This document shows, piece by piece, positions 26,240 through 48,322 of a stretch of 64,000 nt of DNA. Origin of the DNA: a virus; IMG/VR virus record IMGVR_UViG_3300045988_117710; one strand, 5' to 3'. A model generated the notes under the pieces. It made no database searches and was not told the origin of the DNA. It saw nothing but the letters and a program-made list of their open reading frames with translations. Position numbers and translations under genes: made by a program. The first letter of the stretch is position 1, and each line of letters starts with the position of its first letter.

Positions 26240-26267
26240 ATTTTAGTTAATATTGAGGAGGATTTCA

Positions 26268-26576: not shown

Positions 26577-26585
26577 GAGGTAAAT

Positions 26586-29816: not shown

Positions 29817-29829
29817 TTAGGAGGTTAGT

Positions 29830-30162
29830 ATGAATAGTTTATTTGAAAGTGTTGACGCTTGTTTTGAATCTGATGTTATAGTTGAATCAGATTCAAAACT
29901 TGGTTCTATTTTTGTTGCTGAGGTTGGTTACAATGGTGTAGTCGGTACTTGTAGAGGTGCTGGTTCTACTCCTGAAGAAGCCAAAGCAAATGTTATTAAA
30001 TTCTTCAAGCAAGTTTATCCTAGTGTATTAGAAGATTTATTAACTAAAGAAGATTATCAAGATGTTTCTGAAGATAAAGCTCTTGAAGATTGGTATGGTA
30101 TCAATGTATTCGATTTAAGTTCTGGAGCTACTTGTGAGAGTGGAGAAACTTTAAAAGGATAA
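29830..30162 (+). CDS. MNKLFES-leader family protein 3 (110 aa)
   Basis: N-terminus MNSLFESVDACFESD. RBS TAGGAGG. Confidence 0.6.
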   Translation: MNSLFESVDACFESDVIVESDSKLGSIFVAEVGYNGVVGTCRGAGSTPEEAKANVIKFFKQVYPSVLEDLLTKEDYQDVSEDKALEDWYGINVFDLSSGATCESGETLKG

Positions 30163-30165
30163 TTT

Positions 30166-30495
30166 ATGAATAAGTTATTTGAAAGTATAGATAATTTATT
30201 TGAATCTGATATTCTAACTCTAGATGACTTCCTTAGTCATCTAGATGCCTATATGGCAGAGCAATCTATTTTCTTTGAACCATTAGGTGGTTATATTGTC
30301 TATGATGGAGAGTATAGGTTTGTTTATTATGAATTATTAGATACTAATACAACTTATAGTCGTGATGCAAAGAGAAAGCATTATCGTATATTAAGTTATG
30401 ATGGTTCTACTTTTGTTGAGAATCGAATTACAGCTCCTATGTATAATGACTATATTAGATTAGGCATGGTTAGGGAGTATAGTAGAGAGGTATAG
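30166..30495 (+). CDS. MNKLFES-leader family protein 4 (109 aa)
   Basis: N-terminus MNKLFESIDNLFESD. Confidence 0.6.
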   Translation: MNKLFESIDNLFESDILTLDDFLSHLDAYMAEQSIFFEPLGGYIVYDGEYRFVYYELLDTNTTYSRDAKRKHYRILSYDGSTFVENRITAPMYNDYIRLGMVREYSREV

Positions 30496-30504
30496 GAGAT
30501 TATT

Positions 30505-31002
30505 ATGAATAAGTTATTTGAGTCTGTTGATGACTTATATGAATCTGGAAGAAGTTTAGTTGTTGAAGATACTGAAGATTTTGTAGATGATGTTATTACT
30601 GATCCTTATGATTTAGGGTTTACTGAAGAAGATTTACAAAATAATCTTAATGTAAAGTTTACTGAATATGGTGAATTAGATAGTGCTGAACAAGAAGACT
30701 TTCCAGAATGTGATGCAGTATTATATTTTGATGTTTACTATGGAGATTCTAAAGTTGGTGAAACTCAATGTTATGGTGCTAAAGAAGATAATGTTGAAGA
30801 GTATTTTCCTCAAGTAATTGAAAATCTTGTTGGTAATACTTTTGGGTTAGACTTTAGTGAAATTAAGAAAGAAGAAAAACCTTTAGGTGAATCTATTGAA
30901 TATTGTTTAGTTTTACCAGAAGTAAAATCTGATGAAGAAATGAATAAGGTAATTGAAGCTCTTAAGGATTTAGGTTACGAAGCTTATTCTTGGACTCGTT
31001 AA
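30505..31002 (+). CDS. MNKLFES-leader family protein 5 (165 aa)
   Basis: N-terminus MNKLFESVDDLYESGRSLVVEDTEDFVDDVITD. The leader homology with member 2 extends to about 35 aa. Confidence 0.6.
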   Translation: MNKLFESVDDLYESGRSLVVEDTEDFVDDVITDPYDLGFTEEDLQNNLNVKFTEYGELDSAEQEDFPECDAVLYFDVYYGDSKVGETQCYGAKEDNVEEYFPQVIENLVGNTFGLDFSEIKKEEKPLGESIEYCLVLPEVKSDEEMNKVIEALKDLGYEAYSWTR

Positions 31003-31005
31003 TAT

Positions 31006-31035
31006 AAGACTAGTTAATCTAGTCTTTTTCTTTTG
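31006..31035. terminator. intrinsic terminator
   Basis: aagactag-ttaat-ctagtctt hairpin, then TTTTCTTTT. Confidence 0.6.
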
Positions 31036-31044
31036 TCTTTCTAT

Positions 31045-31052
31045 TATATATT
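31045..31052 (+). promoter_or_regulatory. class-B promoter-like motif TATATATT(TATTATAGTAGAG)
   Basis: Upstream of the terminase gene RBS. Confidence 0.4.
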
Positions 31053-31074
31053 TATTATAGTAGAGAGGTGGCCT

Positions 31075-32883
31075 ATGGATAATACTAATTTCCTAGATAA
31101 GATTATTGATTATAACAAATCTCAATATATTTCGAAAGCTACTAAGATTAGAGAGATAGTAGCACCAGAAGTTTGGATTAACGATCCTTACTATTGTGGT
31201 GAGGATGGTAAGTTTTTATATCCATTCTGGAAGAAACACTTTGTTGAGATTTTTTCTCGTCCAAATGAGAAGAGAATTAATGAGATTATAATTACTGGTT
31301 CTTTAGGAACTGGTAAGACTACATTCATGACTTTCTGCTTCTTAAGACTTTTATATGAGCTTAGTTGTTATGATTGTCCACAGATTCTTTATAATTTGAT
31401 GTCAAGTACTTCTATTGTTCTTATGTATTTGTCTATCAATAAGGATATAGCAGAGAATACTGGTTATGGGGATTTGAGACAGAGAATTGATACTATTCCA
31501 TACTTCATTGAGAATTATCCTAGAAATCAAAGATTGTCTAATGATATTGAGTTCCCACAATCTAATATTCGTGTAGGTTCTGGTTCTAGAGCTTCTCATG
31601 CAATTGGTACTAACTTAATTGCTGCGGCTCTTGACGAATCTAACTTCAAAGGTACGGGTGAAGCTGCTACTGATGTCAACTCAATGTCTAAAGCACAACA
31701 AGTTTATAATGCTTTACGTAGACGTGGAGAAAACCGTTTTACCGTTGGTGGTATTGATTATTCATTGTCTATCTTACTTTCTTCTGCAACTACTTCAAAC
31801 TCTTTTACAGAGGCACGTATTGCTCATACTGCTTCTAATGAGCATGTTTATCATATTAATGCTAAGGTTTATGAAGTTAAACCTGCAGGAACTTATAGTA
31901 GTGAGAAGTTTATAGTATTTATGGGTAATGACCAATTGGATCCTACTCTTGTTGAGACTGTTCCAGCTCTTAATAATATTATGGATTCGGTTGGATTACC
32001 AAGATTTGCAGATACAGTCAATCTCGTAGATAGTATTAACTCATTGAGAGAAGATATTAGGGCAATGTTTGAACTTGTTCCTATGAATTTTATTGAGTCT
32101 TTTAGAACAGATGTTGTTAAGTCTTTACAAGATATTTGTGGTGTTCCTGTTAACCCTATTGGTAGATTGTTTACAGCAAAGAGATATTATAATGAGTGTA
32201 TTGACAATCAAGTTACACATCCATTTATTCAAGATGAGTTTATTCTTTCTACTGGTTCATCTGTTACTGGTATTGAGTATTTAAGGTCTGATTGGAAACC
32301 TTTAGAACCACATAAGACTAGATTTGTTCATATCGACCAATCTACAGCATCCGATAAGACTGGTATTTGTATGGGATTTATAGACCATTTTGAGAATATT
32401 AATGGTGAGAATAGACCGGTTATTTATGTAGATTTTATGTTAGCTGTTAATCCACCATTGGCACCAGAAAAGATTCATATTGCCAAGTGTCGTCAGTTAG
32501 TTTTAGATATAGCCAAGAAGTTTAATCTTAAGATTGGTAAATTCACTTACGATACCTTTGCATCTCAAGAGTCTGTTCAACAGCTTCAACAAGAAGGTAT
32601 TAATGCTGATTTTCAATCAGTGGATAGAACAGTTGATGCTTATCTTGAGTTGTGTGATTTATTTTATGAGAAGAGAATTCATATCTATTCTTATCCGAAG
32701 TTTGAGAAGGAGTTCTTTAATTTACAATACTATCGTGATAGGAAGAAGATAGACCACTTACCAGAGTTTTCAAAGGACGTTTCTGATGCTGTTGCAGGAA
32801 TGATTCATAATTGTACTCATAATGATGCTCAGTTGGATGCACTTCGTAAGATGGATGCTGAAAACATTCTTAAGTGGTTATAA
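31075..32883 (+). CDS. terminase large subunit
   Basis: Start ATG 31075 after AGAGAGGTGG (the track ORF begins inside the terminator). ATPase Walker A GSLGTGKTT and Walker B-like AAALDESN. C-terminal RNase-H-like nuclease region with conserved acidic residues (HIDQSTASDKTG...DTFASQ...DAV). Confidence 0.7.
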   Translation: MDNTNFLDKIIDYNKSQYISKATKIREIVAPEVWINDPYYCGEDGKFLYPFWKKHFVEIFSRPNEKRINEIIITGSLGTGKTTFMTFCFLRLLYELSCYDCPQILYNLMSSTSIVLMYLSINKDIAENTGYGDLRQRIDTIPYFIENYPRNQRLSNDIEFPQSNIRVGSGSRASHAIGTNLIAAALDESNFKGTGEAATDVNSMSKAQQVYNALRRRGENRFTVGGIDYSLSILLSSATTSNSFTEARIAHTASNEHVYHINAKVYEVKPAGTYSSEKFIVFMGNDQLDPTLVETVPALNNIMDSVGLPRFADTVNLVDSINSLREDIRAMFELVPMNFIESFRTDVVKSLQDICGVPVNPIGRLFTAKRYYNECIDNQVTHPFIQDEFILSTGSSVTGIEYLRSDWKPLEPHKTRFVHIDQSTASDKTGICMGFIDHFENINGENRPVIYVDFMLAVNPPLAPEKIHIAKCRQLVLDIAKKFNLKIGKFTYDTFASQESVQQLQQEGINADFQSVDRTVDAYLELCDLFYEKRIHIYSYPKFEKEFFNLQYYRDRKKIDHLPEFSKDVSDAVAGMIHNCTHNDAQLDALRKMDAENILKWL

Positions 32884-32891
32884 TTTTGTTT

Positions 32892-32901
32892 TTCGTATTA
32901 T
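32892..32901 (+). promoter_or_regulatory. class-A-like motif TTCGTATTAT overlapping TATATATT
   Basis: Hybrid A/B motif upstream of the gene at 32933. Confidence 0.35.
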
Positions 32902-32932
32902 ATATTATGAATGAAGAAAGGATTGGTTTAAT

Positions 32933-33208
32933 ATGTATGTAATTATTATTGAACACTCATTATCTGATGAACATGATAATGATATTGCTTTTATATCAGT
33001 TAAAGAAGTAGGAGCTCCTGGTACTCCTATATCTGGTCAATATTCTGCTGATAATGAATGTTATTATGAATGGTATGAAACTTATGAAGATTATCAAGTT
33101 GCTCTTGATGTTAAGAATGAGTTAGTTGATAGATTCAAACCATATATGATGGTTAAGAAAAATAAGAAGAATCATAAAAATGTAACTAAAGTTGTGACTT
33201 CTGAATAG
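32933..33208 (+). CDS. hypothetical small protein
   Basis: 91 aa. RBS AAAGGATTGG. Confidence 0.45.
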   Translation: MYVIIIEHSLSDEHDNDIAFISVKEVGAPGTPISGQYSADNECYYEWYETYEDYQVALDVKNELVDRFKPYMMVKKNKKNHKNVTKVVTSE

Positions 33209-33225
33209 TAAATTAGGGAGGAGTT

Positions 33226-34989
33226 ATGTCTGGACCTTTAAACGATAAATTATTGGACGAGGCAGTCAACAAGACTCTTAATGAAAAGAGTTATGAGACT
33301 AACAAGTCTTTTATTGCTGGTATGTCTTTATCACAATTTAGTGACTTTATTCACTCTGACCAAATGTCAGATTTAAATGATAAGGCACTTTATGATGAGA
33401 TGTTACTAGATGCCACAGTTCGTAATGTAATTGATGCTTATGTTGCTGAGATTGTAATTCGTGATACTAATACAAATCATATTTGTACTGTTTTATCTGA
33501 AGATGCTAAACTTGTCGAAGAGTTAAACTCTTTTCTATTTGATAATATCAATATAGATGCTTTAGCAAATAATATTGTATTAAGAATGTTAGCTTATGGA
33601 TGTGCTCCATGTGAGTTAGCTTATATTGATTCAACTACAGATTCTCAATGGCAATTATTCTCTGAAAGTGAGAAGTTAAAAGATATGACTTCTGAAAACT
33701 TATTAGAGAGTTTATCCAAGAAGGATGTTAAAGAGTTTCTTGTTGAAGGTAAGAAACTACGAGTTGTTTCTAATAAGAAAGCTCTTAAGGAAGATGTTCT
33801 TGAGTTAAGAAAGAAACAGTTCCCTGTTAGATGGTATTTAAATCAATTACCTATTTGGTCTTTGAAGGTTTTAAATTCTAAGGGTAAAGATATCGCTTAT
33901 TTAGATCCAACTGTAACTGATAGAGTTTATGATGGAAGAACTCTTGTTCCTTTTATGAACATTTCTTCTAATGATTCAACTAGTATTAGTTCAACAGATG
34001 GTTCTGATAGTTATACTATATCAGCATCTGAAAGTTTTCTTAAACCTGCTAGAAAAGCGTATAGAGTTTTAAGTTCTTTTGAGGATTTATTATTAATCCA
34101 TGCACTTACTACTTCAATTAACTATCGTATTTTTAGTGTTGAAGTTGGTAATTTAGATGAGAAACAAACTCCAGCTCTTTTAGGAGATATTAAGAAGAGA
34201 ATTAATGAGAATGAATCATTCAATTTAGAGACTTCATTCTATAATGCTTCTATGACAGGTGTTCCTCTAGGAGCGTCAATCCTTATTCCAACAAGAAATG
34301 GGGTTGGAACTATTTCAGTTCAACAAATTGATAATAGTTTTGGTACTAGTGAATTAGGTGATTTTAATTATTTCAAGAATAAATTAGCAACTGCTTTACA
34401 TAGTAATTCACTTTTAACTGGTTCTACTGATAATGCAGGTGGACTTGATTCTGGTGGTTCTATGTCTGTTCTTGATGATAGAGCATCACAATATATAGAG
34501 TTATATAGAAATATATTTGCTTCTGGTATTGAATCTTTATGTGATTATTATTTAAGATTAACTAGAACAGAGTCTGCTTATTCAAAGTTAACTACTTTTA
34601 GTATTAGACTTGCTAGAAATATAGATGCTGAACAAGTTAATTTCTTAAAGGGACAATCTGAAGCTGCAAGTTCTCTACAACAAGTTGTTAGAGCACTTAA
34701 AGATTTAGGTTTAGATATGAAGAATTTCTCTGATACTCAATTATTACTAGTTCGTAAATTCTTGGGTAATGAGATTGCAGATTCTTTAGCTCTTGAGATG
34801 GAGAGTGCTAGTTCATTGTCTAGTCGCAAACCTCCTATTGTAGGAGATGATTCTACTGGTGGTGAGTTAGGTTCTACTGGTGATGATTCATTTGATTCAT
34901 TCGAAGTAAGTGATGAAGAAGTTGACAATGCAGTTTCTGGTTCTGATGAAGAACAATTAACTGTTGAAGAACCTGGTATTGAATTATAA
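33226..34989 (+). CDS. putative portal protein
   Basis: 587 aa. Downstream of the terminase. Acidic C-terminal tail. Assignment is by position and size only. Confidence 0.4.
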   Translation: MSGPLNDKLLDEAVNKTLNEKSYETNKSFIAGMSLSQFSDFIHSDQMSDLNDKALYDEMLLDATVRNVIDAYVAEIVIRDTNTNHICTVLSEDAKLVEELNSFLFDNINIDALANNIVLRMLAYGCAPCELAYIDSTTDSQWQLFSESEKLKDMTSENLLESLSKKDVKEFLVEGKKLRVVSNKKALKEDVLELRKKQFPVRWYLNQLPIWSLKVLNSKGKDIAYLDPTVTDRVYDGRTLVPFMNISSNDSTSISSTDGSDSYTISASESFLKPARKAYRVLSSFEDLLLIHALTTSINYRIFSVEVGNLDEKQTPALLGDIKKRINENESFNLETSFYNASMTGVPLGASILIPTRNGVGTISVQQIDNSFGTSELGDFNYFKNKLATALHSNSLLTGSTDNAGGLDSGGSMSVLDDRASQYIELYRNIFASGIESLCDYYLRLTRTESAYSKLTTFSIRLARNIDAEQVNFLKGQSEAASSLQQVVRALKDLGLDMKNFSDTQLLLVRKFLGNEIADSLALEMESASSLSSRKPPIVGDDSTGGELGSTGDDSFDSFEVSDEEVDNAVSGSDEEQLTVEEPGIEL

Positions 34990-35004
34990 ATTTCGTAGAA
35001 TAAG

Positions 35005-35034
35005 TAGAGAATTTAATTATTCTCTACTTTTTTA
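35005..35034. terminator. intrinsic terminator
   Basis: gtagagaat-ttaat-attctctac hairpin, then T7. Confidence 0.65.
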
Positions 35035-35044
35035 TTCGTATAAT
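35035..35044 (+). promoter_or_regulatory. class-A promoter-like motif TTCGTATAAT
   Basis: Before the SSB gene. Confidence 0.45.
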
Positions 35045-35069
35045 TTATTATGAAAGAGAGGTTAAGTAT

Positions 35070-35540
35070 ATGAATACAGTTATTATGTGTGGAAATCTAA
35101 CAGCAGATCCTGAATTACGTCAGGGAGCATCTGGAGTTAATTATACTCAGTTTACTGTTGCTGTTCAACGTTCTAATTTAGAGAAAGATGGAACAAGAAA
35201 AGCAGATTTTATTCCTACTACAGCATTTGGAAACAATGCAATCAATATTTGTAAGTATTTTAAGAAGGGTTCAAAGATACTTCTAAATGGTGAGTGGAGA
35301 ACTGATTCTTATGACCAAAATGGTGTAAGAGTTTATACTCATAAGTTTATAGTTACTCGTTTCTTCTTTACTGGAGGTTCTAGTAATAATAACAGTACAA
35401 CTGCAAATCAATCGTTAGGTGTTCCATATCAACAAGCTCAACAAAATGCACAAATTCGTCAAGATTTTGAAGTACCAACTATAGCAGATGTACCTCAAGA
35501 AGATTTCGGGTTTAGTACAGAAGATGATTTTGGTTTCTAG
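35070..35540 (+). CDS. ssb: single-stranded DNA-binding protein (OB-fold SSB)
   Basis: Typical SSB N-terminus (MNTVIMCGNLTADPELRQ...V.YT.FTVAV.R) and an acidic C-terminal tail ending DDFGF. Confidence 0.75.
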   Translation: MNTVIMCGNLTADPELRQGASGVNYTQFTVAVQRSNLEKDGTRKADFIPTTAFGNNAINICKYFKKGSKILLNGEWRTDSYDQNGVRVYTHKFIVTRFFFTGGSSNNNSTTANQSLGVPYQQAQQNAQIRQDFEVPTIADVPQEDFGFSTEDDFGF

Positions 35541-35549
35541 GAGGTTAAT

Positions 35550-35756
35550 ATGATAAGAGTTAATGATAATTTATATCCAAAAGAAAATATTAAGAATGTT
35601 TCAATTACTTCTGATAATGGTTCTTTTATACTAACTTATTATTTTAAGGAAGATACTAGATTAAGACCTGTTTCTGAATCATTTACTTCTTCTAAAGATA
35701 TGGAGAAGAAGATTACAGAATTACAAGGTAAGAAGGGTAAGACACTTCTTGGCTAG
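35550..35756 (+). CDS. hypothetical small protein
   Basis: RBS TAGGAGG. Confidence 0.4.
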   Translation: MIRVNDNLYPKENIKNVSITSDNGSFILTYYFKEDTRLRPVSESFTSSKDMEKKITELQGKKGKTLLG

Positions 35757-36090
35757 TATGAAAGAGTTTTCTATCTTTTTAGATGAGATAACTCCTTGTT
35801 TGGAGAGTCGTGAGGAGATAGATATTATAACTATAAGGGATAAAGTTAATAATCTCATTTCCTATTATAATTTAAATAAGTCGAATTTGATTACCAAGTG
35901 GATTGAGATTAATGGCAATGATGCTTTTAAGATTCTTCAAGTAACTGATGTGGATTCTTATTTTAAGGTTTTGAGTGTTGTTTTGATGAGTTCTATTGAG
36001 TATTTGTCTGTTCGCAATGATCCTTTATATCTTTTAGCACAATTATCAATTATGTCGGATTGGTATTCGTATAATTCTTTGGATATTTAA
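35749..36090 (+). CDS. hypothetical protein
   Basis: Overlaps the upstream stop. Confidence 0.4.
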   Translation: MASMKEFSIFLDEITPCLESREEIDIITIRDKVNNLISYYNLNKSNLITKWIEINGNDAFKILQVTDVDSYFKVLSVVLMSSIEYLSVRNDPLYLLAQLSIMSDWYSYNSLDI

Positions 36091-36107
36091 TGATTTGAGG
36101 TGATTAA

Positions 36108-37076
36108 GTGTTAAAGCTTTATTTTGTAGGAGATTTACATTTACATGATGTAAGTCCTAGTTCGAGAATAGATGATTATTCTCAAGCAATTTTAGATAAG
36201 CTTTCTCAAGTATTTACTAAGGCGAAGGAAAGTAATGTTGATGCAATTATATTTGAAGGAGATATTTTCCATAAGCCATCTGGTATTTCAGTTAGATACT
36301 TGAATAAGGTTATTGATGTGTTTAAGGAAGCACATTGTCCATGTTATTCTGTTATAGGAAATCATGATGTTCAGTATGGTCGAATAGATGATATTGGTGG
36401 CACTTCTTTAGGAGTTCTATTTAAAGCTGGTTTACTGAAACCATTCTTTGCTGGAGCTTTCTCAATTCCTTTTATGGATGGTAAGGTTTTAGTTGAAGGA
36501 TATAACTATGGTGAGGATATTTCTCAAGCAAGTCCAAGTAGACAAGCAAATTTAACTATTTGTGTTGCTCATAGTTATGGTGAAGATGTTTCATTTGGTG
36601 CTGCAGATACACCAGAGTACTTTAAGTTTAATTCTATAGCTCCTGAAGTTCCATATAATGTTTATGTTTTAGGACATGACCATTCATATCATGATACTAT
36701 GGATTTGTTTGGTGGTCTTTCTAAACTTTATCGTTTAGGAGCTTTGTCTAGAGCAACTTCTAGTGTTACTGATACTAGTAGAGATGTTCAAGTTCTAGAG
36801 TTAGATATTAATGAGGATGGTTCTTATATTCCAATTCCTGTTCACATTGATATTAATCCTGCAGAAGATTGTTTCTCTGCTTTAGCTCTTGATAAGGATA
36901 TGATGTCAAAGAGAGATAGAGAGTTGATTAATAAGTCTTTAGAGGAAGTTTTAGCAAATCTAGATTTTTCAGTTAAGAGTTCTATTTATGATATTCTTGA
37001 TGCTATGGATTTAGATGATAATGTCAAAGCAACTGTAGAACGATATTTGAATAATGCGTTCATTGTAAGGAAGTAG
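36108..37076 (+). CDS. Mre11/SbcD-like DNA repair nuclease (T4 gp47-like metallophosphoesterase)
   Basis: Calcineurin-like motifs GDLHL, GDIFH and GNHD in the order seen in gp47/SbcD. GTG start after GAGGTGA. No adjacent Rad50/SbcC-like gene. Confidence 0.65.
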   Translation: MLKLYFVGDLHLHDVSPSSRIDDYSQAILDKLSQVFTKAKESNVDAIIFEGDIFHKPSGISVRYLNKVIDVFKEAHCPCYSVIGNHDVQYGRIDDIGGTSLGVLFKAGLLKPFFAGAFSIPFMDGKVLVEGYNYGEDISQASPSRQANLTICVAHSYGEDVSFGAADTPEYFKFNSIAPEVPYNVYVLGHDHSYHDTMDLFGGLSKLYRLGALSRATSSVTDTSRDVQVLELDINEDGSYIPIPVHIDINPAEDCFSALALDKDMMSKRDRELINKSLEEVLANLDFSVKSSIYDILDAMDLDDNVKATVERYLNNAFIVRK

Positions 37077-37091
37077 TATACTTCCTTTTTT
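37069..37091. terminator. intrinsic terminator
   Basis: ggaagta-gta-tacttcc hairpin, then T6. Confidence 0.55.
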
Positions 37092-37099
37092 CGTATAAT
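37090..37099 (+). promoter_or_regulatory. class-A promoter-like motif TTCGTATAAT
   Basis: 12 nt before the AGGAGG RBS of the gene at 37123. Confidence 0.45.
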
Positions 37100-37122
37100 A
37101 ATTAGATGATAGGAGGTATATT

Positions 37123-37356
37123 ATGCTTTGTATGAATGGTGTTAGTACAGGTAAGATTCCAATGACTTATACTTGGGTTCCTTGTTTTGTTTGTAATCAT
37201 TGTAGAAAGATAGTATCTGGTGGTGAGTATATTCAAGGAGTTTTCTATTGTCCTATGTGTGCAAGTATAATTCATAGGAATAATAGAGAGTCTAGGGAAG
37301 TTGTTCCTGTGGTAGTTCCTATTAGTATTCCAATGGATAGACAAATTACTTATTAG
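37123..37356 (+). CDS. zinc-ribbon protein
   Basis: CFVCNHC...CPMC. Confidence 0.45.
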   Translation: MLCMNGVSTGKIPMTYTWVPCFVCNHCRKIVSGGEYIQGVFYCPMCASIIHRNNRESREVVPVVVPISIPMDRQITY

Positions 37357-37365
37357 GAGGTATTT

Positions 37366-37683
37366 ATGGAGAAGTTTGAGTTTTGTATTCCAGAAGGGAT
37401 TTCGATTCCCACTGATTTGAAGGTTAAGAAAGGTAAGATTATAGTTAATTATCATAGAGATTCTGATGATTCTATGACTTGGCATTTTACTGTTTATAAT
37501 GCAGGTTCTTTGTCTGAAGCTGATAATGTTGTTCATGAGATTATTCAATTAATGTGTGATCAGTCTTTTGATCATGGTGCTGAGTGGAGAATGACTTCTT
37601 GTGAGATGGGTGATTCTTGTTTTAATAACTTTCTTGACTATGCTGATTTTAAGGTATCATTTAGAATAAAGGATAGTTGGTAA
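37366..37683 (+). CDS. hypothetical protein
   Basis: RBS TAGGAGG. 105 aa. Confidence 0.45.
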   Translation: MEKFEFCIPEGISIPTDLKVKKGKIIVNYHRDSDDSMTWHFTVYNAGSLSEADNVVHEIIQLMCDQSFDHGAEWRMTSCEMGDSCFNNFLDYADFKVSFRIKDSW

Positions 37684-37684
37684 T

Positions 37685-38146
37685 ATGGAGAAGATTGCAA
37701 GTTTTACTGTAGATCATACAGTTTTGTTACCTGGAGTGTATATTAGTAGGGTTGATGAAGATATTGTTACTTATGATATTAGAATTAAGCGACCTAATAC
37801 TGATGATTTGATGTCTAATGAGGAGATGCATTCGGTTGAGCATTTATTGGCTACGGCATTGAGGAATTCTTATCTTAAGGATGATGTTATTTACTTTGGT
37901 CCTATGGGTTGCCAAACGGGTTATTATTGTCTTATGAGAGTGGATTCTGGGTTTAATTTTATGAAGTTTCTGAAGGATGTTATGATTTATGCTCTTTCTT
38001 TTGATTCTATGCCAGGTCAATCTGCTGTTGAGTGTGGTAATTATAAGAATTTAGATTTAGAATTAGGTAAGTCTTGTATTAAGAATTACTTGAATTTACT
38101 TGATTCTTTTGAGGATATTTGTGAATATCCAAAGAAACTTGATTAA
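37685..38146 (+). CDS. luxS: S-ribosylhomocysteine lyase (LuxS) homolog
   Basis: SFTVDHT matches the LuxS N-terminus. Metal-binding HxxEH is present as HSVEH. The catalytic-Cys context GPMGCQTGYY matches SPMGCRTGFY. CGNY matches CGTY. 153 aa. Confidence 0.8.
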   Translation: MEKIASFTVDHTVLLPGVYISRVDEDIVTYDIRIKRPNTDDLMSNEEMHSVEHLLATALRNSYLKDDVIYFGPMGCQTGYYCLMRVDSGFNFMKFLKDVMIYALSFDSMPGQSAVECGNYKNLDLELGKSCIKNYLNLLDSFEDICEYPKKLD

Positions 38147-38173
38147 GTTATCAGTTTAAGATTAATTTATTTT

Positions 38174-38190
38174 ATATTAATATAGTAGAT
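38174..38190 (+). promoter_or_regulatory. class-B promoter-like motif TATATTAATATAGTAGA
   Basis: Upstream of the strongly RBS-ed gene at 38214. Confidence 0.35.
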
Positions 38191-38213
38191 TTTAGTATTT
38201 AAAAGGAGAATTT

Positions 38214-38663
38214 ATGGCTGTTAGAACAGGTATCGCTACAAGCGAAACTATTAAAGAAACTCTTGAAAATGCAGGAGTTGAATTATCTTATGGAGCTACT
38301 GCCGAAACTTGGAAAGAAGCATTAACTACTATTAGTGGTACAGATACTACTATTGCTCCTAGAGAAGTTGAAGGTGTTACTGGTTTCATGAGTACTAACG
38401 AAACAGTTTTAAAAACTTTTAATAATGAAGTTTCTGGTTCAGCATTCACTGTTGATTTAGTTTTCATTAAAGATGGTAAAGCTGTTGAAGTTGAAAATCC
38501 TACATTAGGTGGTCAAGTAGGAGTTAAAGAAGATGACCATTATGAATTTGCAAATATTAGTGCAGAACTAGTTGATGCAGAATTAACATTTAGTTTCGAT
38601 GGAGAAGATTATAGCTTAACTAAATCTTATTCAACATTTACTGATGATATTGTAATATTATAA
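38214..38663 (+). CDS. probable abundant virion structural protein (function unknown)
   Basis: Strong RBS AAAAGGAGAA. Ala/Thr/Gly/Val-rich 149-aa protein behind a late-type motif. Confidence 0.45.
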   Translation: MAVRTGIATSETIKETLENAGVELSYGATAETWKEALTTISGTDTTIAPREVEGVTGFMSTNETVLKTFNNEVSGSAFTVDLVFIKDGKAVEVENPTLGGQVGVKEDDHYEFANISAELVDAELTFSFDGEDYSLTKSYSTFTDDIVIL

Positions 38664-38683
38664 TTTAATAGAAGGAGGAAAAT

Positions 38684-40336
38684 ATGAATAATTTTTATGA
38701 TTCAATTGATAAAGTAGATTTCACTTCTATTTTTGAGGAAGACAACAATATTTCTCTTGATGATGTAAAGTTTTGTAAAAATTGTTTTAATGAGTTTAGT
38801 GGCGAAGGTGACATATGTCCATCTTGTAGCAAACTAAATGAAGAAATTCCTGCAGAAACAAAATTGATTCTAGATGCAGTTAGAGAATTTGAAAACCAAT
38901 TACCAATGTTTGGTTATTCAGATCCTACTGAACTTAGTTATGAAGAACAAGAAGAACTTCTTACTGATACAATGAATTTTGTATATGGTGAAAACAATTG
39001 GTCAAAGAAAGAATTCAATGATGTTGCTAGAGAGTTAGGAATTCCTGGAATCATTAAAGAGAATGTAGAAGAAGATATTTCTGATTTACAATCTGCTTTA
39101 TCTGAACTTAAACAAGGTATTGAAGGTTTAGAAAAGACTGATGATGTTTCTGATGAAGATACTTTCGAGTTCAGAGGACAAAAGTATACTAAAGAGAAAG
39201 CACAAAAGGAAATCGACAAGATTGAGAAAGATTTAGATAATCTTAATCAAGAAAAGGTTGATGACTTAGATAATGCATTCAATGATAATACAATCACTGA
39301 ACCTGTTGCTTCTGAACCTGTTGAGGAACCTGCTGCACCTGAACCAGTTGAAGTTGTAGATGGTGTTATTGATCCAACTAATGGTGATGCTGGTCAAGCT
39401 ACTGATGTTGATGTTATTGATGGTGTTGATCCATTAAGTGATATTGAATTAGCTGCTGAAGAACCTAAGGAAGAACCTAAAGAAGATACTGAAGATTCTA
39501 AAGAAGATTCTAAAGAAGATGAAGGTTTAAATGAAGCAATTCAAGCCCATGTAACAGTTGATAATATTGACCAAGAATCTAAAGACAAAGCAACTATTGA
39601 AAAGGCAATTGCTTTAGCTGGTGATAAGAATGTTATCGATAATGATACTTTCAGAGCTTTACGTTTAGCTCTTGCTAATAAAGATTATGACTTAATTGAT
39701 AGACTTAAAGATTATGCATTAGTTCGTGGTGAAGATGTAGTTTACACTTGGTTACGTGCTGAAGATTCTAATCTTAAGGAATCTGCTAGTAGCAAGAAGT
39801 TCTGCTTAGTTGAAGGTGTTGATTGTGGTACTTGTAAAGAAGAAGTTCTTGAAGAACCTGAAGATGATGAAGTTGTTGAAGATGGTGCTTTACAAGTTGA
39901 TGATGTTCCTGCCAAGGTTGATCAAGGTAAACCTGGTAAACGTCTTGAATTAGCAAGACTTGAAAATGAAGGTGTTGTTTCTTACAGAGTTTCTTATCTT
40001 AAAGAAGATGATGAAATTATGGGTTGGGATATAGAAGCTGATTCTGATGAAGAAGCTTTAGATGCCTTAGACAAGTTTGATGCTGCAAGTGATACAATAG
40101 ATGGTGTTTCTAATTTAGAGTTTAATGATACTCCTATTGCTGGAATTAGTTCTACAAGTTACAATGGTGTTGATTTAGCATTATCTACTGCTGAAGATGG
40201 AAACGCTTTATTAACTATTACTACTCAAGAAGGAATTCCTGTACTTTTAAAAGGTGAAAACCTAGACGATATATTGACTAAGTTAATTTATTGGTTTATA
40301 ATGGGTGCAGAGAGTACTTGCAAGGAGGTAATGTAA
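38684..40336 (+). CDS. acidic protein with N-terminal zinc ribbon and Pro/Glu-rich linkers
   Basis: CKNCFNE...CPSC, EPVEEPAAPEPVE and KEEPKEDTEDSKEDSKEDEG. Confidence 0.5.
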   Translation: MNNFYDSIDKVDFTSIFEEDNNISLDDVKFCKNCFNEFSGEGDICPSCSKLNEEIPAETKLILDAVREFENQLPMFGYSDPTELSYEEQEELLTDTMNFVYGENNWSKKEFNDVARELGIPGIIKENVEEDISDLQSALSELKQGIEGLEKTDDVSDEDTFEFRGQKYTKEKAQKEIDKIEKDLDNLNQEKVDDLDNAFNDNTITEPVASEPVEEPAAPEPVEVVDGVIDPTNGDAGQATDVDVIDGVDPLSDIELAAEEPKEEPKEDTEDSKEDSKEDEGLNEAIQAHVTVDNIDQESKDKATIEKAIALAGDKNVIDNDTFRALRLALANKDYDLIDRLKDYALVRGEDVVYTWLRAEDSNLKESASSKKFCLVEGVDCGTCKEEVLEEPEDDEVVEDGALQVDDVPAKVDQGKPGKRLELARLENEGVVSYRVSYLKEDDEIMGWDIEADSDEEALDALDKFDAASDTIDGVSNLEFNDTPIAGISSTSYNGVDLALSTAEDGNALLTITTQEGIPVLLKGENLDDILTKLIYWFIMGAESTCKEVM

Positions 40337-42288
40337 TGAAAGTTAAAGTAAATAAACTTGTTAAGGAAGCTGACATCGCTGTTGATACAAATTTAATAGA
40401 TATGGGTGAAGGTTCTAGTTTTATTACTGGAACCGAAGCTCTTACTAAACTTAAATCTTTAGAAGTTGGTATGCCTGTAGTTGTTAAGTGGGGTACTGAA
40501 AGTAATTCACCTGCTAAACAATCTATTTTTGTTGGTATTGCTGAAGGTCCTTATGGAAACGTTTTCGATTTCTATGATGGTGAAGGTGTTACTGGTATTT
40601 CTTCTGCTTCTGAAGGATTTATTAAGAATGGTAAGGTGTCATTTGATTTTGATAATAATGACGCTACTGAAGTTACTAGATTAACTAATGAAGTTAAGAG
40701 TCAATCAGGAATAGTTGAAGAATCTGCTGAAGGTTCTGAAAAGACTTTCTCTCAATGGTTTGATGAAACTTATCCAGAAACTCATGATGTTAGTAGTGGT
40801 GAATTCTATCCATTTACTAATTATATTAAAGCATTTCCAAATGCTGCTTGTCTTAAAGATGCAACTGCTAAAGACATAAGAGCAAATGCTAGTAAGTTCT
40901 ATGATGTTTATGATGTAGACTCTGATGATAGAGAATATGCATTTATTTTTGCTAGTGAAGAACTAGGTATAGATTATGATGAATTATACTATGCTTGGTT
41001 ACATGGTGAAGATTCTGAATCTCTTAATGAAGGTGAAGCTTTCTATAAGATTCCAGAAGATTTACAAAAGATTATTGATGGTTTCTCTACTAATGTAGAT
41101 GATCCTATGTATGATAATGGTTATGAAGTTCCAGATGAACTTTTAGATCTTGCAAATAATCCACCTAAGAATATGAGAGTTAAAGATTGGATGAGAATTA
41201 TAGCTCCATTTGAATATCAATTAGATCGTATTCCATCAGATATTACTTTCGAAAACCTATATAATGGTATTGATGATGGATTCTTAACTAATATTGATTC
41301 TGATCCTAGAAATGAAGTTTTAGATAAGCTTTATGATATCTATGATTTAGATAAGGATAAAGAATTAGCCAATAAGATTTGGACTAGTTTAGGATTTGAA
41401 AGATGGTTTGAATCTGAAGAACCTAAAGTTTCTGAAACTGCAGTTGAAAGTAGATTATTAGATTTAGTTAAAACTGTTAATTCAGAGTATTCTTTAGACA
41501 ATGTTCAATTATATACTACTGATAAAGGTAATTATAATATTAGAACTAAAGCTGATGAATCTAATCCAATTGGTAAGGATATTGTTACAGTTTCTTATAG
41601 TGCTTTAATTAAAGATGAAGATGATGAAATTGCTTTACGTGATTTAGGTTACTTTGATGATTATATTAATAATATGATTAATGGTTCTGAAGGATTAACT
41701 GAAAGTGTTATTCCTGCTAGTAACTTAGATTTTGCTCATCAAGAGTTAGCAATTATTCAAAGTGAGATTGAAAAGATTGCTGGTCTTAAGTCTGAAGATA
41801 CTGCAAATGATTTATATACTGATTTACTTGAAGTATTAGACAAAGCTGTTGAAGTTCTATCTGACCATATAGCAGAACAACCTATAGGAACTGTTGTTGG
41901 TGATGAACCAGCTCCTACTCCTGTAGAACCAACTCCAGAATTACCAATGGATATGCCTATGGGTGAATCTGAAACTCTTACTGAGGATGAAGATACTTTA
42001 GAGGCAATGTGGACTGCTGTATGTAGTGGTGATGCTGATACTATTAAGAGTATGTATGATAATGGTGTAATTCAACCAAACACTAGATATGAACGTTTTG
42101 GACATAATAATTCATTTATAATGGGTGCTTTAAGAAATGGTGATTTTGATACTGCAGAGTTATTAAAGAACTACGGTGAAACTATTTTAAAAGCAGAGTT
42201 AGATGAATATAAGTCAATTATGGCAAAGCGTAATTATGAAGATGAAACTACTAAGTCAGCATTAGATGAAAATAAGAGTGCTGAATAA
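40336..42288 (+). CDS. large hypothetical virion-associated protein with possible C-terminal ankyrin-like repeats
   Basis: Start ATG 40336 overlaps the upstream TAA. C-terminus (GHNNSFIMGALRNGDFDTAELLKNYG) resembles an ankyrin repeat. PT-rich linker EPAPTPVEPTPELP. Confidence 0.45.
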   Translation: MKVKVNKLVKEADIAVDTNLIDMGEGSSFITGTEALTKLKSLEVGMPVVVKWGTESNSPAKQSIFVGIAEGPYGNVFDFYDGEGVTGISSASEGFIKNGKVSFDFDNNDATEVTRLTNEVKSQSGIVEESAEGSEKTFSQWFDETYPETHDVSSGEFYPFTNYIKAFPNAACLKDATAKDIRANASKFYDVYDVDSDDREYAFIFASEELGIDYDELYYAWLHGEDSESLNEGEAFYKIPEDLQKIIDGFSTNVDDPMYDNGYEVPDELLDLANNPPKNMRVKDWMRIIAPFEYQLDRIPSDITFENLYNGIDDGFLTNIDSDPRNEVLDKLYDIYDLDKDKELANKIWTSLGFERWFESEEPKVSETAVESRLLDLVKTVNSEYSLDNVQLYTTDKGNYNIRTKADESNPIGKDIVTVSYSALIKDEDDEIALRDLGYFDDYINNMINGSEGLTESVIPASNLDFAHQELAIIQSEIEKIAGLKSEDTANDLYTDLLEVLDKAVEVLSDHIAEQPIGTVVGDEPAPTPVEPTPELPMDMPMGESETLTEDEDTLEAMWTAVCSGDADTIKSMYDNGVIQPNTRYERFGHNNSFIMGALRNGDFDTAELLKNYGETILKAELDEYKSIMAKRNYEDETTKSALDENKSAE

Positions 42289-42298
42289 TAGATTTTAC

Positions 42299-42306
42299 TA
42301 TATATT
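42299..42306 (+). promoter_or_regulatory. class-B promoter-like motif TATATATT(AGTATAGAA)
   Basis: 18 nt before the RBS AAGGAG of the gene at 42331. Confidence 0.4.
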
Positions 42307-42330
42307 AGTATAGAATATAAGGAGATTGAA

Positions 42331-42585
42331 ATGTTTAGTTTAGACGTAATGAAAGCTGAAATTTTAGAAGTTATCAAAGAAGTTAATCCTGAAACAGTTG
42401 TAACTGAAGCTGATATCACAGTTGATTTTACAAGAAATGTATTCGAAGTTACTATTGCTAACTTAGATGTTGAAACAAAGACATTCTTTGTTAGAGGTTC
42501 TGATGTTATCGGAAGATATGTAGTTAGAACTATTGGATTTATAGCTCCAACTGAAGAAGGATTTGTTACTTTCTTTAGAGGGTAA
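42331..42585 (+). CDS. hypothetical protein
   Basis: 84 aa. Confidence 0.45.
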   Translation: MFSLDVMKAEILEVIKEVNPETVVTEADITVDFTRNVFEVTIANLDVETKTFFVRGSDVIGRYVVRTIGFIAPTEEGFVTFFRG

Positions 42586-42605
42586 TTACTAATTAGTCTT
42601 TCTTA

Positions 42606-42632
42606 AGAGTCACATATGTGGCTCTTTTTATA
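42606..42632. terminator. intrinsic terminator
   Basis: agagtcacat/atgtggctct stem (one G-U pair), then T5. Confidence 0.6.
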
Positions 42633-42636
42633 TATT
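42629..42636 (+). promoter_or_regulatory. class-B promoter-like motif TATATATT(AGAATAGTT)
   Basis: Overlaps the terminator T-tract, upstream of the lysis operon. Confidence 0.4.
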
Positions 42637-42664
42637 AGAATAGTTTAGATATGAAAGGATTTTT

Positions 42665-42841
42665 ATGGCAAAGAAAAAGAAGAACTTAGTAGATAAAGTT
42701 AAAGAAGCTTTTTCTAAAGAAGTTAAGGAAGAAGTAGAAGTTGTTGATGAGGTTGAAGAATTAGAACCTGAATTACGTTCTGCTGATTTTGGTATTCCTG
42801 CTGAAGATGAAGAGTTAGTTGTTTTAGAAGATGAGGAGTAG
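42665..42841 (+). CDS. small acidic protein (58 aa), not in the ORF track
   Basis: ATG 42665 after GAAAGGA. Translation MAKKKKNLVDKVKEAFSKEVKEEVEVVDEVEELEPELRSADFGIPAEDEELVVLEDEE. Stop lies 2 nt before the endolysin start. No TM helix, so probably not a holin. Confidence 0.35.
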   Translation: MAKKKKNLVDKVKEAFSKEVKEEVEVVDEVEELEPELRSADFGIPAEDEELVVLEDEE

Positions 42842-42843
42842 AG

Positions 42844-43803
42844 ATGAAAGTATTTGGTATTGATATAAGTACTTGGCAAAAGAATTATCCTTATGATAAA
42901 GCAAATAAGGAAGGTGTTAAGTTTGCTATTTTAAGAGCTGGGTTTTCTAGAACTAAAGACAATCAATTTGAAACACATTATTCTAATGCTAAAAGATTAG
43001 GATGGGGTGTTGGAGCTTATTGGTATATGTATGCTACTACTGTAGATGCTGCTAAAGCCGAAGCACAAGCTTTCCTAAATGCAATCAAAGGTAAACAATT
43101 TGATTATCCTGTTTATTTGGATATTGAAGATAAGACAGTTAGAGCAACAGGTAAGACTAACTGTAATAATATGATTAGAGCTTTCGGTGAAATTATTGAA
43201 GGTGCTGGTTATTATTTTGGTGTTTATACTAACTTAGATTGGTATAGAAATGTTATTAGTGGTGCTGAGTTAAATAAGAAATATGATTGGTGGATTGCTT
43301 GTTGGTCAACAGGAGCTCCTAAAGGAGTTAATTATGGTTTATGGCAATTTGGTGGTGAAACTAATTATATTAGAAGTAATAAAGTTGCTGGTGTAGTAAC
43401 TGACCAAAACTATGCAGTTAAGGATTATCCTTCTATTATTAAAGGTTTAGGTCTTAATGGATATCCAAAACCTGAACCAACTCCAGTTGTTCCAGAACCT
43501 GAACCAACTCCAGTTGTGCCAGAGCCAACTCCAGTTGTTCCTGAACCAGAACCTAAGCCAGAACCAACTCCAACTCCTGCACCTGTTGTTAAGAAGATTG
43601 GTGTAGGTGATACTGTTGTAGTTAATGGTGTTGGTAGATCTACTTCTTATGGAGAAGGAAATCATACTAGAAATTATACTAATCATACTGCTAAAGTTAT
43701 TTATGTAAGAGAAGGTCGTTCTCATCCATATGCTCTTAATTGTAACAACAATATGAATGGAGTTACTGGATGGTTTAAAGCGAATGATGTAACTAAGATT
43801 TAG
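42844..43803 (+). CDS. endolysin: GH25 muramidase, Pro/Thr linker, SH3b-like cell-wall-binding domain
   Basis: GH25 N-terminus MKVFGIDISTWQK...GVKFAILRAGFS...GAYWY. Linker (PEPTPVVPE)n. C-terminal KIGVGDTVVVNGVGRSTSYG...GWFKANDV resembles SH3b. Confidence 0.8.
   Translation: MKVFGIDISTWQKNYPYDKANKEGVKFAILRAGFSRTKDNQFETHYSNAKRLGWGVGAYWYMYATTVDAAKAEAQAFLNAIKGKQFDYPVYLDIEDKTVRATGKTNCNNMIRAFGEIIEGAGYYFGVYTNLDWYRNVISGAELNKKYDWWIACWSTGAPKGVNYGLWQFGGETNYIRSNKVAGVVTDQNYAVKDYPSIIKGLGLNGYPKPEPTPVVPEPEPTPVVPEPTPVVPEPEPKPEPTPTPAPVVKKIGVGDTVVVNGVGRSTSYGEGNHTRNYTNHTAKVIYVREGRSHPYALNCNNNMNGVTGWFKANDVTKI
43471..43591 (+). repeat. imperfect tandem repeats encoding the PEPTPVVPEPEP linker
   Basis: cctgaaccaactccagttgttccagaa units repeated. 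Confidence 0.65.
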
Positions 43804-43827
43804 TCATTTTGTTATATATTACTATGA

Positions 43828-43917
43828 GTGATACTTCGGTATTGCTCTAGGACTACCTCCTTTCTGTGGTGTGTTTTTCACACGAAGAAGAGCTGTTTAT
43901 CAGTTCTTCTTTTTTGT
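43828..43917 (+). ncRNA. candidate small RNA: a class-B motif drives about 90 nt ending at an intrinsic terminator, with a 16S-3'-end-like CCUCCUUUCU core
   Basis: TATATATT at 43813-43820 directly after the lysin stop. Contains tacctcctttct (43854-43865) and the small hairpin gtgtg-ttttt-cacac. Ends at terminator 43884-43917. No ORF. Confidence 0.2.
43884..43917. terminator. intrinsic terminator
   Basis: 11-bp stem aagaagagctg/cagttcttctt with loop tttat, then T6. Confidence 0.65.
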
Positions 43918-43925
43918 TATATATT
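43918..43925 (+). promoter_or_regulatory. class-B promoter-like motif TATATATT(TAATTAGTATAGAA)
   Basis: Upstream of the phosphoesterase gene. Confidence 0.4.
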
Positions 43926-43949
43926 TAATTAGTATAGAAAGAAGATGGT

Positions 43950-44735
43950 ATGCAATATTTTGTTTGTTCAGATACTCATGGTTATCATTTAGAGTTTCTT
44001 TCTGGGTTATATGCTAGTGGGTTCGATGTTAATAATGACAATCACAAGTTAATTGTTTGTGGTGATATTTGTGATGGTGGTATCTGGTTTAAGGAGCATT
44101 TGTTGTTCCTATATGATTTGTGGAAGAATTGTAAAGCAATTATTCTTCATGGCAATCATGATTATATTTTGATAGGTTTTCTTAAGAATTTATATTCTTA
44201 TGATCATTTTCTTAATGATAGGTTAGAAGAGACTTTGAGTAGTTTATTAGATTTTGAGTTTTCTTTTGAAGTTTTCAAGAGAGGTTTCACTAATAAGAGT
44301 GATTCTGAAATATTCAGTATTTGGCAAAGTATTGTAGCAAAGAAGATTAAGAAGAAGTATCCATTTCTTCTTAAGTTTTTATCAGGATTGCCACATTACT
44401 TTGAAACAGAGCATTATATCTTTACTCATGGTGCAATTGATTATCAATGTTCTGATTGGCATAATCCTACTATTCAAGGTAATAAGTGTTATGGTTGGGT
44501 TGCTCTTCATTTTGTAGGCCCTGATTATTATCGTACATTTATAAATAGTACGGGTAAGACATTGGTTGTTGGACATTTGAATGCAGATTTGATGAGATTT
44601 CATTTAGAAGGTATTGCTTCAAATGGTGTATATCAACAAAATAGTATATATTATAATGAGTTTTTAGATGTTTATTTTCTTGATGCTCTAACTTCCTATA
44701 GTAGGAGAGTAAACTTTTTAGTATTAAATGATTAG
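43950..44735 (+). CDS. calcineurin-like metallophosphoesterase (Ser/Thr phosphatase / ApaH-like)
   Basis: Motifs DTHG, GDICDGG and GNHD. Confidence 0.65.
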   Translation: MQYFVCSDTHGYHLEFLSGLYASGFDVNNDNHKLIVCGDICDGGIWFKEHLLFLYDLWKNCKAIILHGNHDYILIGFLKNLYSYDHFLNDRLEETLSSLLDFEFSFEVFKRGFTNKSDSEIFSIWQSIVAKKIKKKYPFLLKFLSGLPHYFETEHYIFTHGAIDYQCSDWHNPTIQGNKCYGWVALHFVGPDYYRTFINSTGKTLVVGHLNADLMRFHLEGIASNGVYQQNSIYYNEFLDVYFLDALTSYSRRVNFLVLND

Positions 44736-44746
44736 GAGGAGTTAGT

Positions 44747-47320: not shown

Positions 47321-47342
47321 TTACTTTGTTGGAACTATTTGT

Positions 47343-47361
47343 ATATTATATTAGTAATAGA
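47343..47361 (+). promoter_or_regulatory. class-B promoter-like motif TATATTATATTAGTAATAG
   Basis: Before the RBS TAGGAG of the gene at 47377. Confidence 0.35.
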
Positions 47362-47376
47362 TTTTAGGAGATTAAA

Positions 47377-47907: not shown

Positions 47908-47908
47908 T

Positions 47909-48232: not shown

Positions 48233-48254
48233 TATCTCAATAATGTGTGATTCT

Positions 48255-48291
48255 TATGCTAAGGATTTTGTATTAATCCTTAGCATTTTTT
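48255..48291. terminator. intrinsic terminator
   Basis: 12-bp stem atgctaaggatt/aatccttagcat, then T6. Confidence 0.65.
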
Positions 48292-48292
48292 G

Positions 48293-48310
48293 TATATTTA
48301 TATAGTAAGA
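48293..48310 (+). promoter_or_regulatory. class-B promoter-like motif TATATTTATATAGTAAGA
   Basis: Directly after the terminator; upstream of the gene at 48323. Confidence 0.35.
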
Positions 48311-48322
48311 CAGGAGTGGATT

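Follow-up and report, generated by a model that had tools for sequence, protein, structure and literature searches.

By family profile, structural alignment and predicted fold, an open reading frame (ORF) within the virus record IMGVR_UViG_3300045988_117710 of IMG/VR encodes LuxS, the S-ribosylhomocysteine lyase (EC 4.4.1.21) whose activity yields the precursor of the bacterial signal autoinducer-2 (AI-2). The DNA that was analysed is a stretch of 64,000 nt, referred to as the window throughout (1..64000). The ORF runs from ATG to TAA and a Shine-Dalgarno-like AAGGA is found 11 nt 5' of its start. Its ATG lies one base past the stop codon of a 105-amino acid (aa) ORF on its 5' side (TAA-T-ATG).

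37685..38146, + strand: luxS, S-ribosylhomocysteine lyase, 153 aa (ORF, PF02664, PDB alignment, residue mapping, AlphaFold2 and Foldseek, ratio of nonsynonymous to synonymous substitution rates (dN/dS))

The gene product was matched to Pfam family PF02664 with an E value of 3.5e-42 and 144.2 bits, set against a gathering score of 27, and the match covered positions 1-146 of the 154 in the model. Solved LuxS structures from B. subtilis, H. pylori, D. radiodurans and others were recovered at E values of 1e-15 to 1e-7 and approximately 30% identity. The family match is thus beyond chance on account of the Pfam E value taken together with a PDB LuxS match at about 1e-15. No PHROG family was found for the protein. 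A monomer model of LuxS was built with AlphaFold2 from 22 homologues and reached a mean predicted local distance difference test (pLDDT) of 87.1 and a predicted template modelling score (pTM) of 0.84. When this model was compared to the PDB using Foldseek, 18 significant matches were obtained at E values of 1e-11 to 1e-8 and every one of them was a LuxS, with H. pylori 1j6x as the top match at a template modelling (TM) score of 0.81.

Functional residues were mapped by alignment to the B. subtilis enzyme (1J98). The metal ligands H49, H53 and C117 correspond to H54, H58 and C126, the catalytic pair E52 and C76 to E57 and C84, and the substrate-binding residues S6, H11 and R33 to S6, H11 and R39. 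All eight are invariant in 42 members of the phage clade described below and in 77 other homologues, and the HxxEH, GPMGCQTG and ECG motifs of the luxS product line up with those of LuxS in the PDB. The original prediction, which was made from the sequence without database searches, had called the gene a phage-borne luxS on the basis of an N-terminal SFTVDHT, an HxxEH metal site and a conserved Cys in a PMGC context. The family matches and the fold agree with this identity and the named motifs are all present (S6-F-T-V-D-H11-T, H49-S-V-E52-H53 and G-P-M-G-C76-Q-T-G). Substitution of key residues on careful alignment had been put forward as grounds for abandoning the claim; none is substituted and all are retained. 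The Cys of the PMGC motif is conserved as stated and the alignment clarifies the division of labour between the two Cys residues, in that C76 is the catalytic base while the third metal ligand is C117 in the later E-C-G. From the intact active-site residues and the LuxS fold we infer that the phage LuxS is catalytically competent. Nothing in the protein departs from the family, and there are zero indels between it and the closest cellular enzymes, which are from Oscillospiraceae.

The gene is surrounded by phage genes. Approximately 84 kb of the genome of the source lineage was covered, that is the 64-kb window and 10 kb on each side of it. All window ORFs of plausible coding quality lie on the + strand at a GC content of 30-35%, GC skew is positive (0.16-0.40) in each 2-kb bin of the 64 kb and no tRNA genes were detected in the window. 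Matches to PHROG and Pfam within the window included baseplate wedge/gp25, a DnaB-like helicase, a prohead protease, a GroEL-like chaperonin, DNA polymerase, clamp-loader, a T4-type portal, the single-stranded DNA-binding protein (SSB), an SbcD-like phosphoesterase, endolysin, tail sheath, a gp19-type tail tube and UvsX/RecA. Further baseplate genes were found in the 10 kb upstream of the window. The luxS gene lies 37 kb into this 64-kb run of phage genes, 2.7 kb past the portal gene and 4.7 kb ahead of the endolysin gene, and is flanked by viral hallmarks on both sides, namely portal, SSB and the SbcD-like gene upstream and endolysin, tail sheath and tail tube downstream. Its GC content of 0.325 matches that of the surrounding phage genes (0.30-0.35 in the window). 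The genes that anchor this position are as follows.

33226..34989, + strand: T4-type portal gene, 2.7 kb upstream of luxS (phrog_213; Portal_T4 in orthologues)
35070..35540, + strand: SSB gene, synteny anchor kept in relatives (Pfam SSB, E=1.1e-23)
36108..37076, + strand: SbcD-like metallophosphoesterase gene, synteny anchor (phrog_100, Pfam Metallophos; neighbour kept in contigs L003, L004, L009, L100 and L103-L112)
42844..43803, + strand: endolysin gene, glycoside hydrolase 25 type (phrog_291, E=4e-43; Glyco_hydro_25 in orthologue)

No near-identical DNA was found among 50,697 GenBank phage records. Portals of large Firmicute myoviruses, such as Bacillus SP-15, Listeria LIS04 and Bacillus HSE3, share no more than 30% identity with the one in the window, and this over 30-42% of its length, so that the lineage is an uncultured one. 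An identical or 95-99% identical LuxS is encoded on metagenomic contigs of 179-189 kb, which puts the genome size at approximately 180 kb. One of these, the sister contig ERZ28576703 HMPC12-1_SAMN00034694 scaffold_33 of 179,133 bp, derived from the Human Microbiome Project (HMP), carries a luxS identical in nucleotides and an identical MetK at the same spacing of 24 kb. The phage is accordingly described as a T4-like myovirus of about 180 kb with 31% GC and a single coding strand. The phage looks virulent, as it is T4-like and the 84 kb that were read showed no integrase.

The position of luxS is shared by diverged relatives. The LuxS protein is 99% identical to that of one relative (L009) and 80% (L003), 77% (L004), 72% (L098) and 66% (L100) identical to those of other phage relatives. 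In L003, L004, L098 and L100 the same block was observed, consisting of SSB, small ORFs, Metallophos, small ORFs, LuxS and an ORF of around 150 aa, and in the longer contigs L003 and L004 the T4-type portal is found upstream of this block as well. The luxS slot is also kept in the relative with the 99% identical LuxS. When the 149-aa ORF downstream of luxS was used as a probe, an intact 153-aa luxS was found in 10 out of 10 independent contigs from different samples. That the gene is borne by a phage, as originally claimed, is thus upheld both by the hallmark phage genes in the window and by the retention of the slot in diverged phage relatives.

These data bear directly on the explanation that luxS is host DNA, brought in by chimeric assembly, as a prophage flank or as a transduced fragment. 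The explanation draws its strength from the other "viral" LuxS records that were inspected, which proved to be bacterial or bacterial-looking. Here, however, luxS is 37 kb inside a one-strand run of phage genes at phage-like GC, it occupies one and the same position in five diverged lineages of phage and in upwards of 12 independent assemblies, and no cellular LuxS exceeds about 63% identity to its product. Contamination is refuted by the combination of synteny and divergence and we regard a host origin of this DNA as exceedingly improbable.

Other records in public collections gave a different picture. The GenBank phage collection contains 13 records with any LuxS match. Three records that carry the label "Bacteriophage sp." or "Enterococcus phage" were considered as phage comparators and discarded: MT835476 (MT835476.1, L011) is bacterial chromosome from an origin region with DnaA, GidA, ParB and RecF, MT835487 (MT835487.1, L014) is bacterial and carries phosphotransferase system (PTS), GH1, histidine-kinase/two-component and MatE genes, and OR846587 (OR846587.1, L102) is a bacterial housekeeping region with RNase J, DapA, Asd, Rho and MurA. 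In MT835691 only the mtnN neighbour was looked at, and it did not look like phage DNA. These four make up the inspected part of the 13 LuxS-matching records; Listeria and Staphylococcus "phage" contigs are among the other nine. A scan of IMG/VR with LuxS gave a single distant match, IMGVR_UViG_2588253903_000007 (L001), in which luxS and mtnN sit at the contig end beside PAP2 and a DDE transposase; it looks like a host flank and was rejected as a viral LuxS. Since the five LuxS "phage" contigs that were inspected, four from GenBank and one from IMG/VR, are bacterial or bacterial-looking, survey counts of viral luxS from public collections are probably inflated.

The selective constraint on luxS was evaluated next to that on its neighbours. 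Among close alleles, 12 out of 12 are intact with no frameshift or stop and no change in a functional residue, and they contain 19 synonymous and 13 nonsynonymous segregating sites. Pairwise dN/dS, calculated according to Nei-Gojobori, was 0.05-0.19 for luxS compared to 0.06-0.19 for the portal gene, 0.02-0.13 for the SbcD-like gene and 0.18-0.36 for SSB. For the flanking small ORFs it spanned 0.12-1.45, and 0.42-0.52 in diverged comparisons. The luxS gene is under purifying selection in the same range as the core portal and SbcD-like genes.

Conservation of this kind also speaks to the notion that the LuxS fold was kept in an inactive or repurposed protein, for example to bind or inhibit a host protein, or to supply DPD (4,5-dihydroxy-2,3-pentanedione) or homocysteine for phage chemistry such as DNA modification. 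The score of 155.2 bits against the best NCBIfam equivalog model, NF002604, falls slightly below the cut-off of 158, the phage proteins form a separate clade and the portal shows distant similarity to its counterpart in Bacillus phage SP-15. The DNA of SP-15 carries 5-(4',5'-dihydroxypentyl)uracil, the side chain of which superficially recalls DPD. Against repurposing stand the eight functional residues, which are invariant across the clade, selection as strong as that on core genes and the lack of any indel relative to the closest cellular enzymes. We consider a repurposed LuxS improbable. The specific proposal that DPD serves as precursor of an SP-15-like dihydroxypentyl-uracil was rejected, as SP-15 gave no LuxS match in the phage collection.

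With respect to origin, the 42 phage-type LuxS proteins formed one clade in 180 out of 200 neighbour-joining resamples. The lowest identity within this clade, 0.63, is about equal to the highest identity to any protein outside it, 0.62. The nearest cellular LuxS proteins are 50-63% identical and stem from Oscillibacter, Dysosmobacter, Oscillospiraceae, Ruminococcus and other gut Clostridia. Those at 57-63% identity are on metagenomic contigs of Clostridia in which SCIFF, SLH-domain and SpoIID genes are present, while in species-representative genomes identity to the phage protein is at most 60%. The cellular proteins used for comparison (B. subtilis 1J98, H. pylori 1J6X and the 151-155-aa enzymes of gut Oscillospiraceae/Clostridia) are of the same length class and share fold, metal site and catalytic and substrate residues with the phage protein. 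The latter differs in forming its own clade, in being encoded among replication and structural genes and in a GC content that has drifted to 32%. We conclude from these comparisons that luxS was captured once, long ago, from an Oscillospirales-like (Clostridia) host lineage and has since been held under core-gene-like constraint. It has been inherited vertically in uncultured T4-like myoviruses, which were recovered from human and animal gut samples.

The closest cellular luxS genes are found in a purine cluster, which is an unusual genomic home for luxS. The order is purL, in L002 a gene for a PunA-type purine nucleoside phosphorylase (PNP), luxS, purE, purM, purN, IMP cyclohydrolase and purH (L002 5448..14545; L005 6174..18576), and in L005 three SLH-domain genes are inserted past luxS. 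The PNP_UDP_1 gene beside luxS in L002 was considered as a candidate Pfs and ruled out, as comparison to the PDB showed a PunA-type purine nucleoside phosphorylase.

The immediate surroundings of luxS within the window consist of small conserved ORFs.

37067..37087, + strand: terminator-like hairpin with T-run where the SbcD-like gene ends (consensus match only)
37123..37356, + strand: 77-aa ORF with two CxxC pairs (zinc-ribbon-like), first gene past the hairpin (no Pfam match)
37366..37683, + strand: conserved 105-aa ORF adjoining luxS, function unassigned (no Pfam or PHROG match; dN/dS 0.4-0.5)
38214..38663, + strand: conserved 149-aa ORF directly downstream of luxS with its own AAAGGAG ribosome-binding site (ORF; function unassigned)

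The hairpin may form the upstream boundary of a unit made up of the small genes and luxS. A promoter scan around luxS gave 25 hits compared to 21.2±3.7 expected from shuffled sequence, which is not above chance. The 105-aa ORF is upstream of luxS in four of the five diverged lineages and the signature FDHGAEWR...FRIKD(S/T)W is conserved in all four. It is absent from L003, where DUF5662 and an 83-aa ORF are found nearby instead and the orthologue of the 77-aa ORF is immediately upstream of luxS. In the 149-aa ORF a dS of 0.01 was observed compared to 0.08-0.14 for neighbour genes in the same pair, and dN/dS reached 1.45 between close variants.

Further afield, a 616-aa gene upstream of the portal gene (31033..32883; MJ0330_N in orthologues) is free of inteins in the window. 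Its orthologue in the 99%-related phage (L009 1146..5207) is 1353 aa long with two Intein_splicing matches and a LAGLIDADG homing endonuclease, and that in the 80%-related phage (L003 1086..4103) is 1005 aa long and likewise contains an intein. Intein presence or absence at this gene is thus polymorphic within a single phage group. The GroEL-like chaperonin gene (16415..17887; phrog_5725, E=4e-43) is located in the structural/replication region. The first roughly 210 residues of a 1277-aa ORF (11416..15249) match a prohead maturation protease (phrog_207; Peptidase_S77 in orthologue) and the remaining roughly 1000 residues carry no annotation. A glycosyltransferase family 8 gene (53152..53868, E=4e-25) is found among the tail genes, just 5' of the sheath gene.

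Only one other enzyme of small-molecule metabolism was identified in the region, and it belongs to the same cycle as LuxS.

62086..63258, + strand: metK, S-adenosylmethionine synthetase, 390 aa (24.4 kb downstream of luxS, same strand)

A MetK homologue at this position had been named in the original prediction and is substantiated by matches to all three S-AdoMet_synt domains of Pfam (N, M and C, with E values of 6e-17, 2e-22 and 1e-34) and to phrog_1569 (E=1.4e-72). Homologues of this MetK were found in 129 phage records. In the sister contig L007 (11331..18596), past MetK and just beyond the window end at 64000, genes for TelA, a ClpB-like Clp_N/AAA protein beside a proteasome-like protein (HslV/ClpP-type, weak match), a 147-aa homologue of ribosomal protein L9 and a protein resembling tRNA-His guanylyltransferases of the Thg1 family were observed.

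The remaining steps of the activated methyl cycle were searched for by Pfam scans of 46+10 window ORFs at E<=1e-4/0.01; many of the ORFs are unannotated and divergent enzymes could escape such scans. No Pfam match to PNP_UDP_1, the family of Pfs/MtnN, was found among the window ORFs or in the 10-kb extensions, and neither the window nor the sister loci L007-L010 gave a match at E<=10 in a tblastn search with E. coli Mtn. As a positive control, the same search recovered mtnN next to luxS in L001, L014 and L016. The earlier statement that no Pfs gene is present was therefore correct for the window. No Rfam family, and so no SAM/SAH riboswitch near luxS or metK, scored above the gathering score in the window (SAM, S-adenosylmethionine; SAH, S-adenosylhomocysteine). 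Of the activated methyl cycle, the phage has MetK and LuxS, which falls short of a full phage-encoded module in the roughly 84 kb covered.

Two roles had been put forward for the gene, manipulation of AI-2 signalling and support of the methyl cycle. Sequence analysis does not separate them; the metabolic role is ranked first here. We consider it somewhat more probable than not that LuxS confers a metabolic benefit, through salvage of homocysteine into methionine and SAM together with MetK, and that AI-2 is a by-product. In such a scheme S-ribosylhomocysteine would be made by the Pfs/MtnN of the host, on which the phage would depend, from the SAH left by methyl transfer. Phage LuxS would then split S-ribosylhomocysteine into homocysteine and DPD in the infected cell. 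Homocysteine would be converted to methionine via host MetE/MetH and methionine to SAM via phage MetK, so that methionine units would stay in the cycle. DPD would spontaneously turn into AI-2 and be released as an unavoidable by-product.

This role is ranked first for three reasons: MetK catalyzes the entry step of the same cycle and is the sole further enzyme of small-molecule metabolism identified in the region, the window ORFs scanned gave no sensing component, and luxS, metK, mtnN and dcm have been reported as dominant among the organosulfur genes of viruses in human samples (Kieft et al. 2021, bioRxiv 10.1101/2021.01.05.425418).

The competing explanation with the most substance is that phage LuxS raises AI-2 from infected cells in order to alter uninfected bacteria or other phages, with metabolism being secondary. 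The effects envisaged are induction of resident prophages, altered biofilm or receptor expression, or a report of infection density. DPD/AI-2 is an obligatory product of the LuxS reaction, and prophage induction or lytic development is triggered by AI-2 in E. faecalis and E. coli T1 (PMC7790227). In biofilms of C. difficile, LuxS/AI-2 increases the expression of prophages (PMC6616478). It also counts in favour of signalling that a purely metabolic role finds no justification in any SAM-consuming enzyme, none having been found in the 84 kb covered. On the other side, scanning of the window ORFs gave no AI-2 receptor, no Lsr component and no other sensing module; specifically, AI-2 receptor, periplasmic-binding, dCACHE and Lsr families were all missing from the Pfam and PHROG matches of the window. 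AI-2 sensing is known from few bacteria, and the presumed host group has no established receptor (PMC7790227, PMC6616478). Signalling furthermore has no need of a co-occurring MetK, and as the phage looks virulent, an AI-2 signal from a cell near lysis would pay off only indirectly. We therefore regard signalling as the main function as unlikely. Slightly less likely still is the bolder version in which a virulent gut phage deliberately over-produces AI-2 as an interspecies signal that wakes competing prophages or shifts the biofilm or receptor state of neighbours for the next infection. If true, this would be the first phage seen to encode not a receptor but the synthase of a universal autoinducer.

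A number of observations weigh against the preferred role in methionine and SAM salvage. No DNA or RNA methyltransferase, radical-SAM enzyme or MetE/H was found in the window or the 10-kb extensions, and the heavy phage-driven use of SAM that the role presumes thus has no SAM sink in about 84 kb of the roughly 180 kb. LuxS would work downstream of SAH removal and by itself would give no relief of methyltransferase inhibition. The phage host may already have a LuxS of its own, as its presumed relatives do. The equivalog score mentioned above is marginally too low, and no enzymatic or expression data on any phage LuxS were found in the literature searched. The benefit as first proposed, clearing of S-ribosylhomocysteine, was moreover weakly reasoned. 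In general terms of the pathway, the known inhibitory intermediate is SAH, which is removed by Pfs, and not S-ribosylhomocysteine. Since removal of SAH falls to Pfs, which is absent in the 84 kb, LuxS would help mainly by regenerating homocysteine.

Viral luxS has been reported before. Kieft et al. (bioRxiv 10.1101/2021.01.05.425418) described luxS, metK, mtnN and dcm as the dominant viral organosulfur auxiliary metabolic genes (AMGs) in human samples, with dN/dS below 1 and co-occurrence of luxS and mtnN, and did not mention quorum sensing. Quorum sensing was suggested in a 2026 study of anaerobic digesters in which phage LuxS was reported (PMC13644194). The gene described here resembles these metagenomic luxS AMGs in being on a viral contig from human-associated or anaerobic samples and in being under purifying selection. 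The surveys report pairs of luxS and mtnN, whereas this phage combines luxS with metK and mtnN was not seen in 84 kb; the luxS-mtnN pairs that we inspected in "viral" records are surrounded by bacterial-looking DNA. For this lineage, viral residence is documented by a gene order shared across diverged relatives, evidence that the surveys do not provide for it.

Phage-encoded MetK, as in Streptococcus Javan prophages, Faecalibacterium phage FP_Brigit and Staphylococcus phage UPMK_1, likewise belongs to the activated methyl cycle but is a different enzyme. Phage quorum-sensing genes such as VqmA of VP882, LuxR-type receptors, agr of C. difficile phage phiCDHM1 and arbitrium similarly touch bacterial signalling. 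Those, however, are receptors or peptide-signal systems with a sensing arm, whereas here a synthase is found alone which is also a housekeeping enzyme.

The finding as such is already known, both as an annotation and as a class, viral luxS having been reported in 2021. A protein identical to that of the window is present in nr as "S-Ribosylhomocysteinase (LuxS) [Caudoviricetes sp.]" from a Caudoviricetes metagenome-assembled genome (MAG). What is added here is that this lineage represents a clean and anciently viral case of luxS.

With a luxS that is plainly viral, ancient and conserved, the lineage offers a good experimental entry to the question of metabolism versus signalling. AI-2 has a demonstrated influence on prophage induction and on the behaviour of communities. 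Should the enzyme be active in infection, an abundant gut phage lineage would reroute the methionine and SAM metabolism of its host and add AI-2 to the gut.

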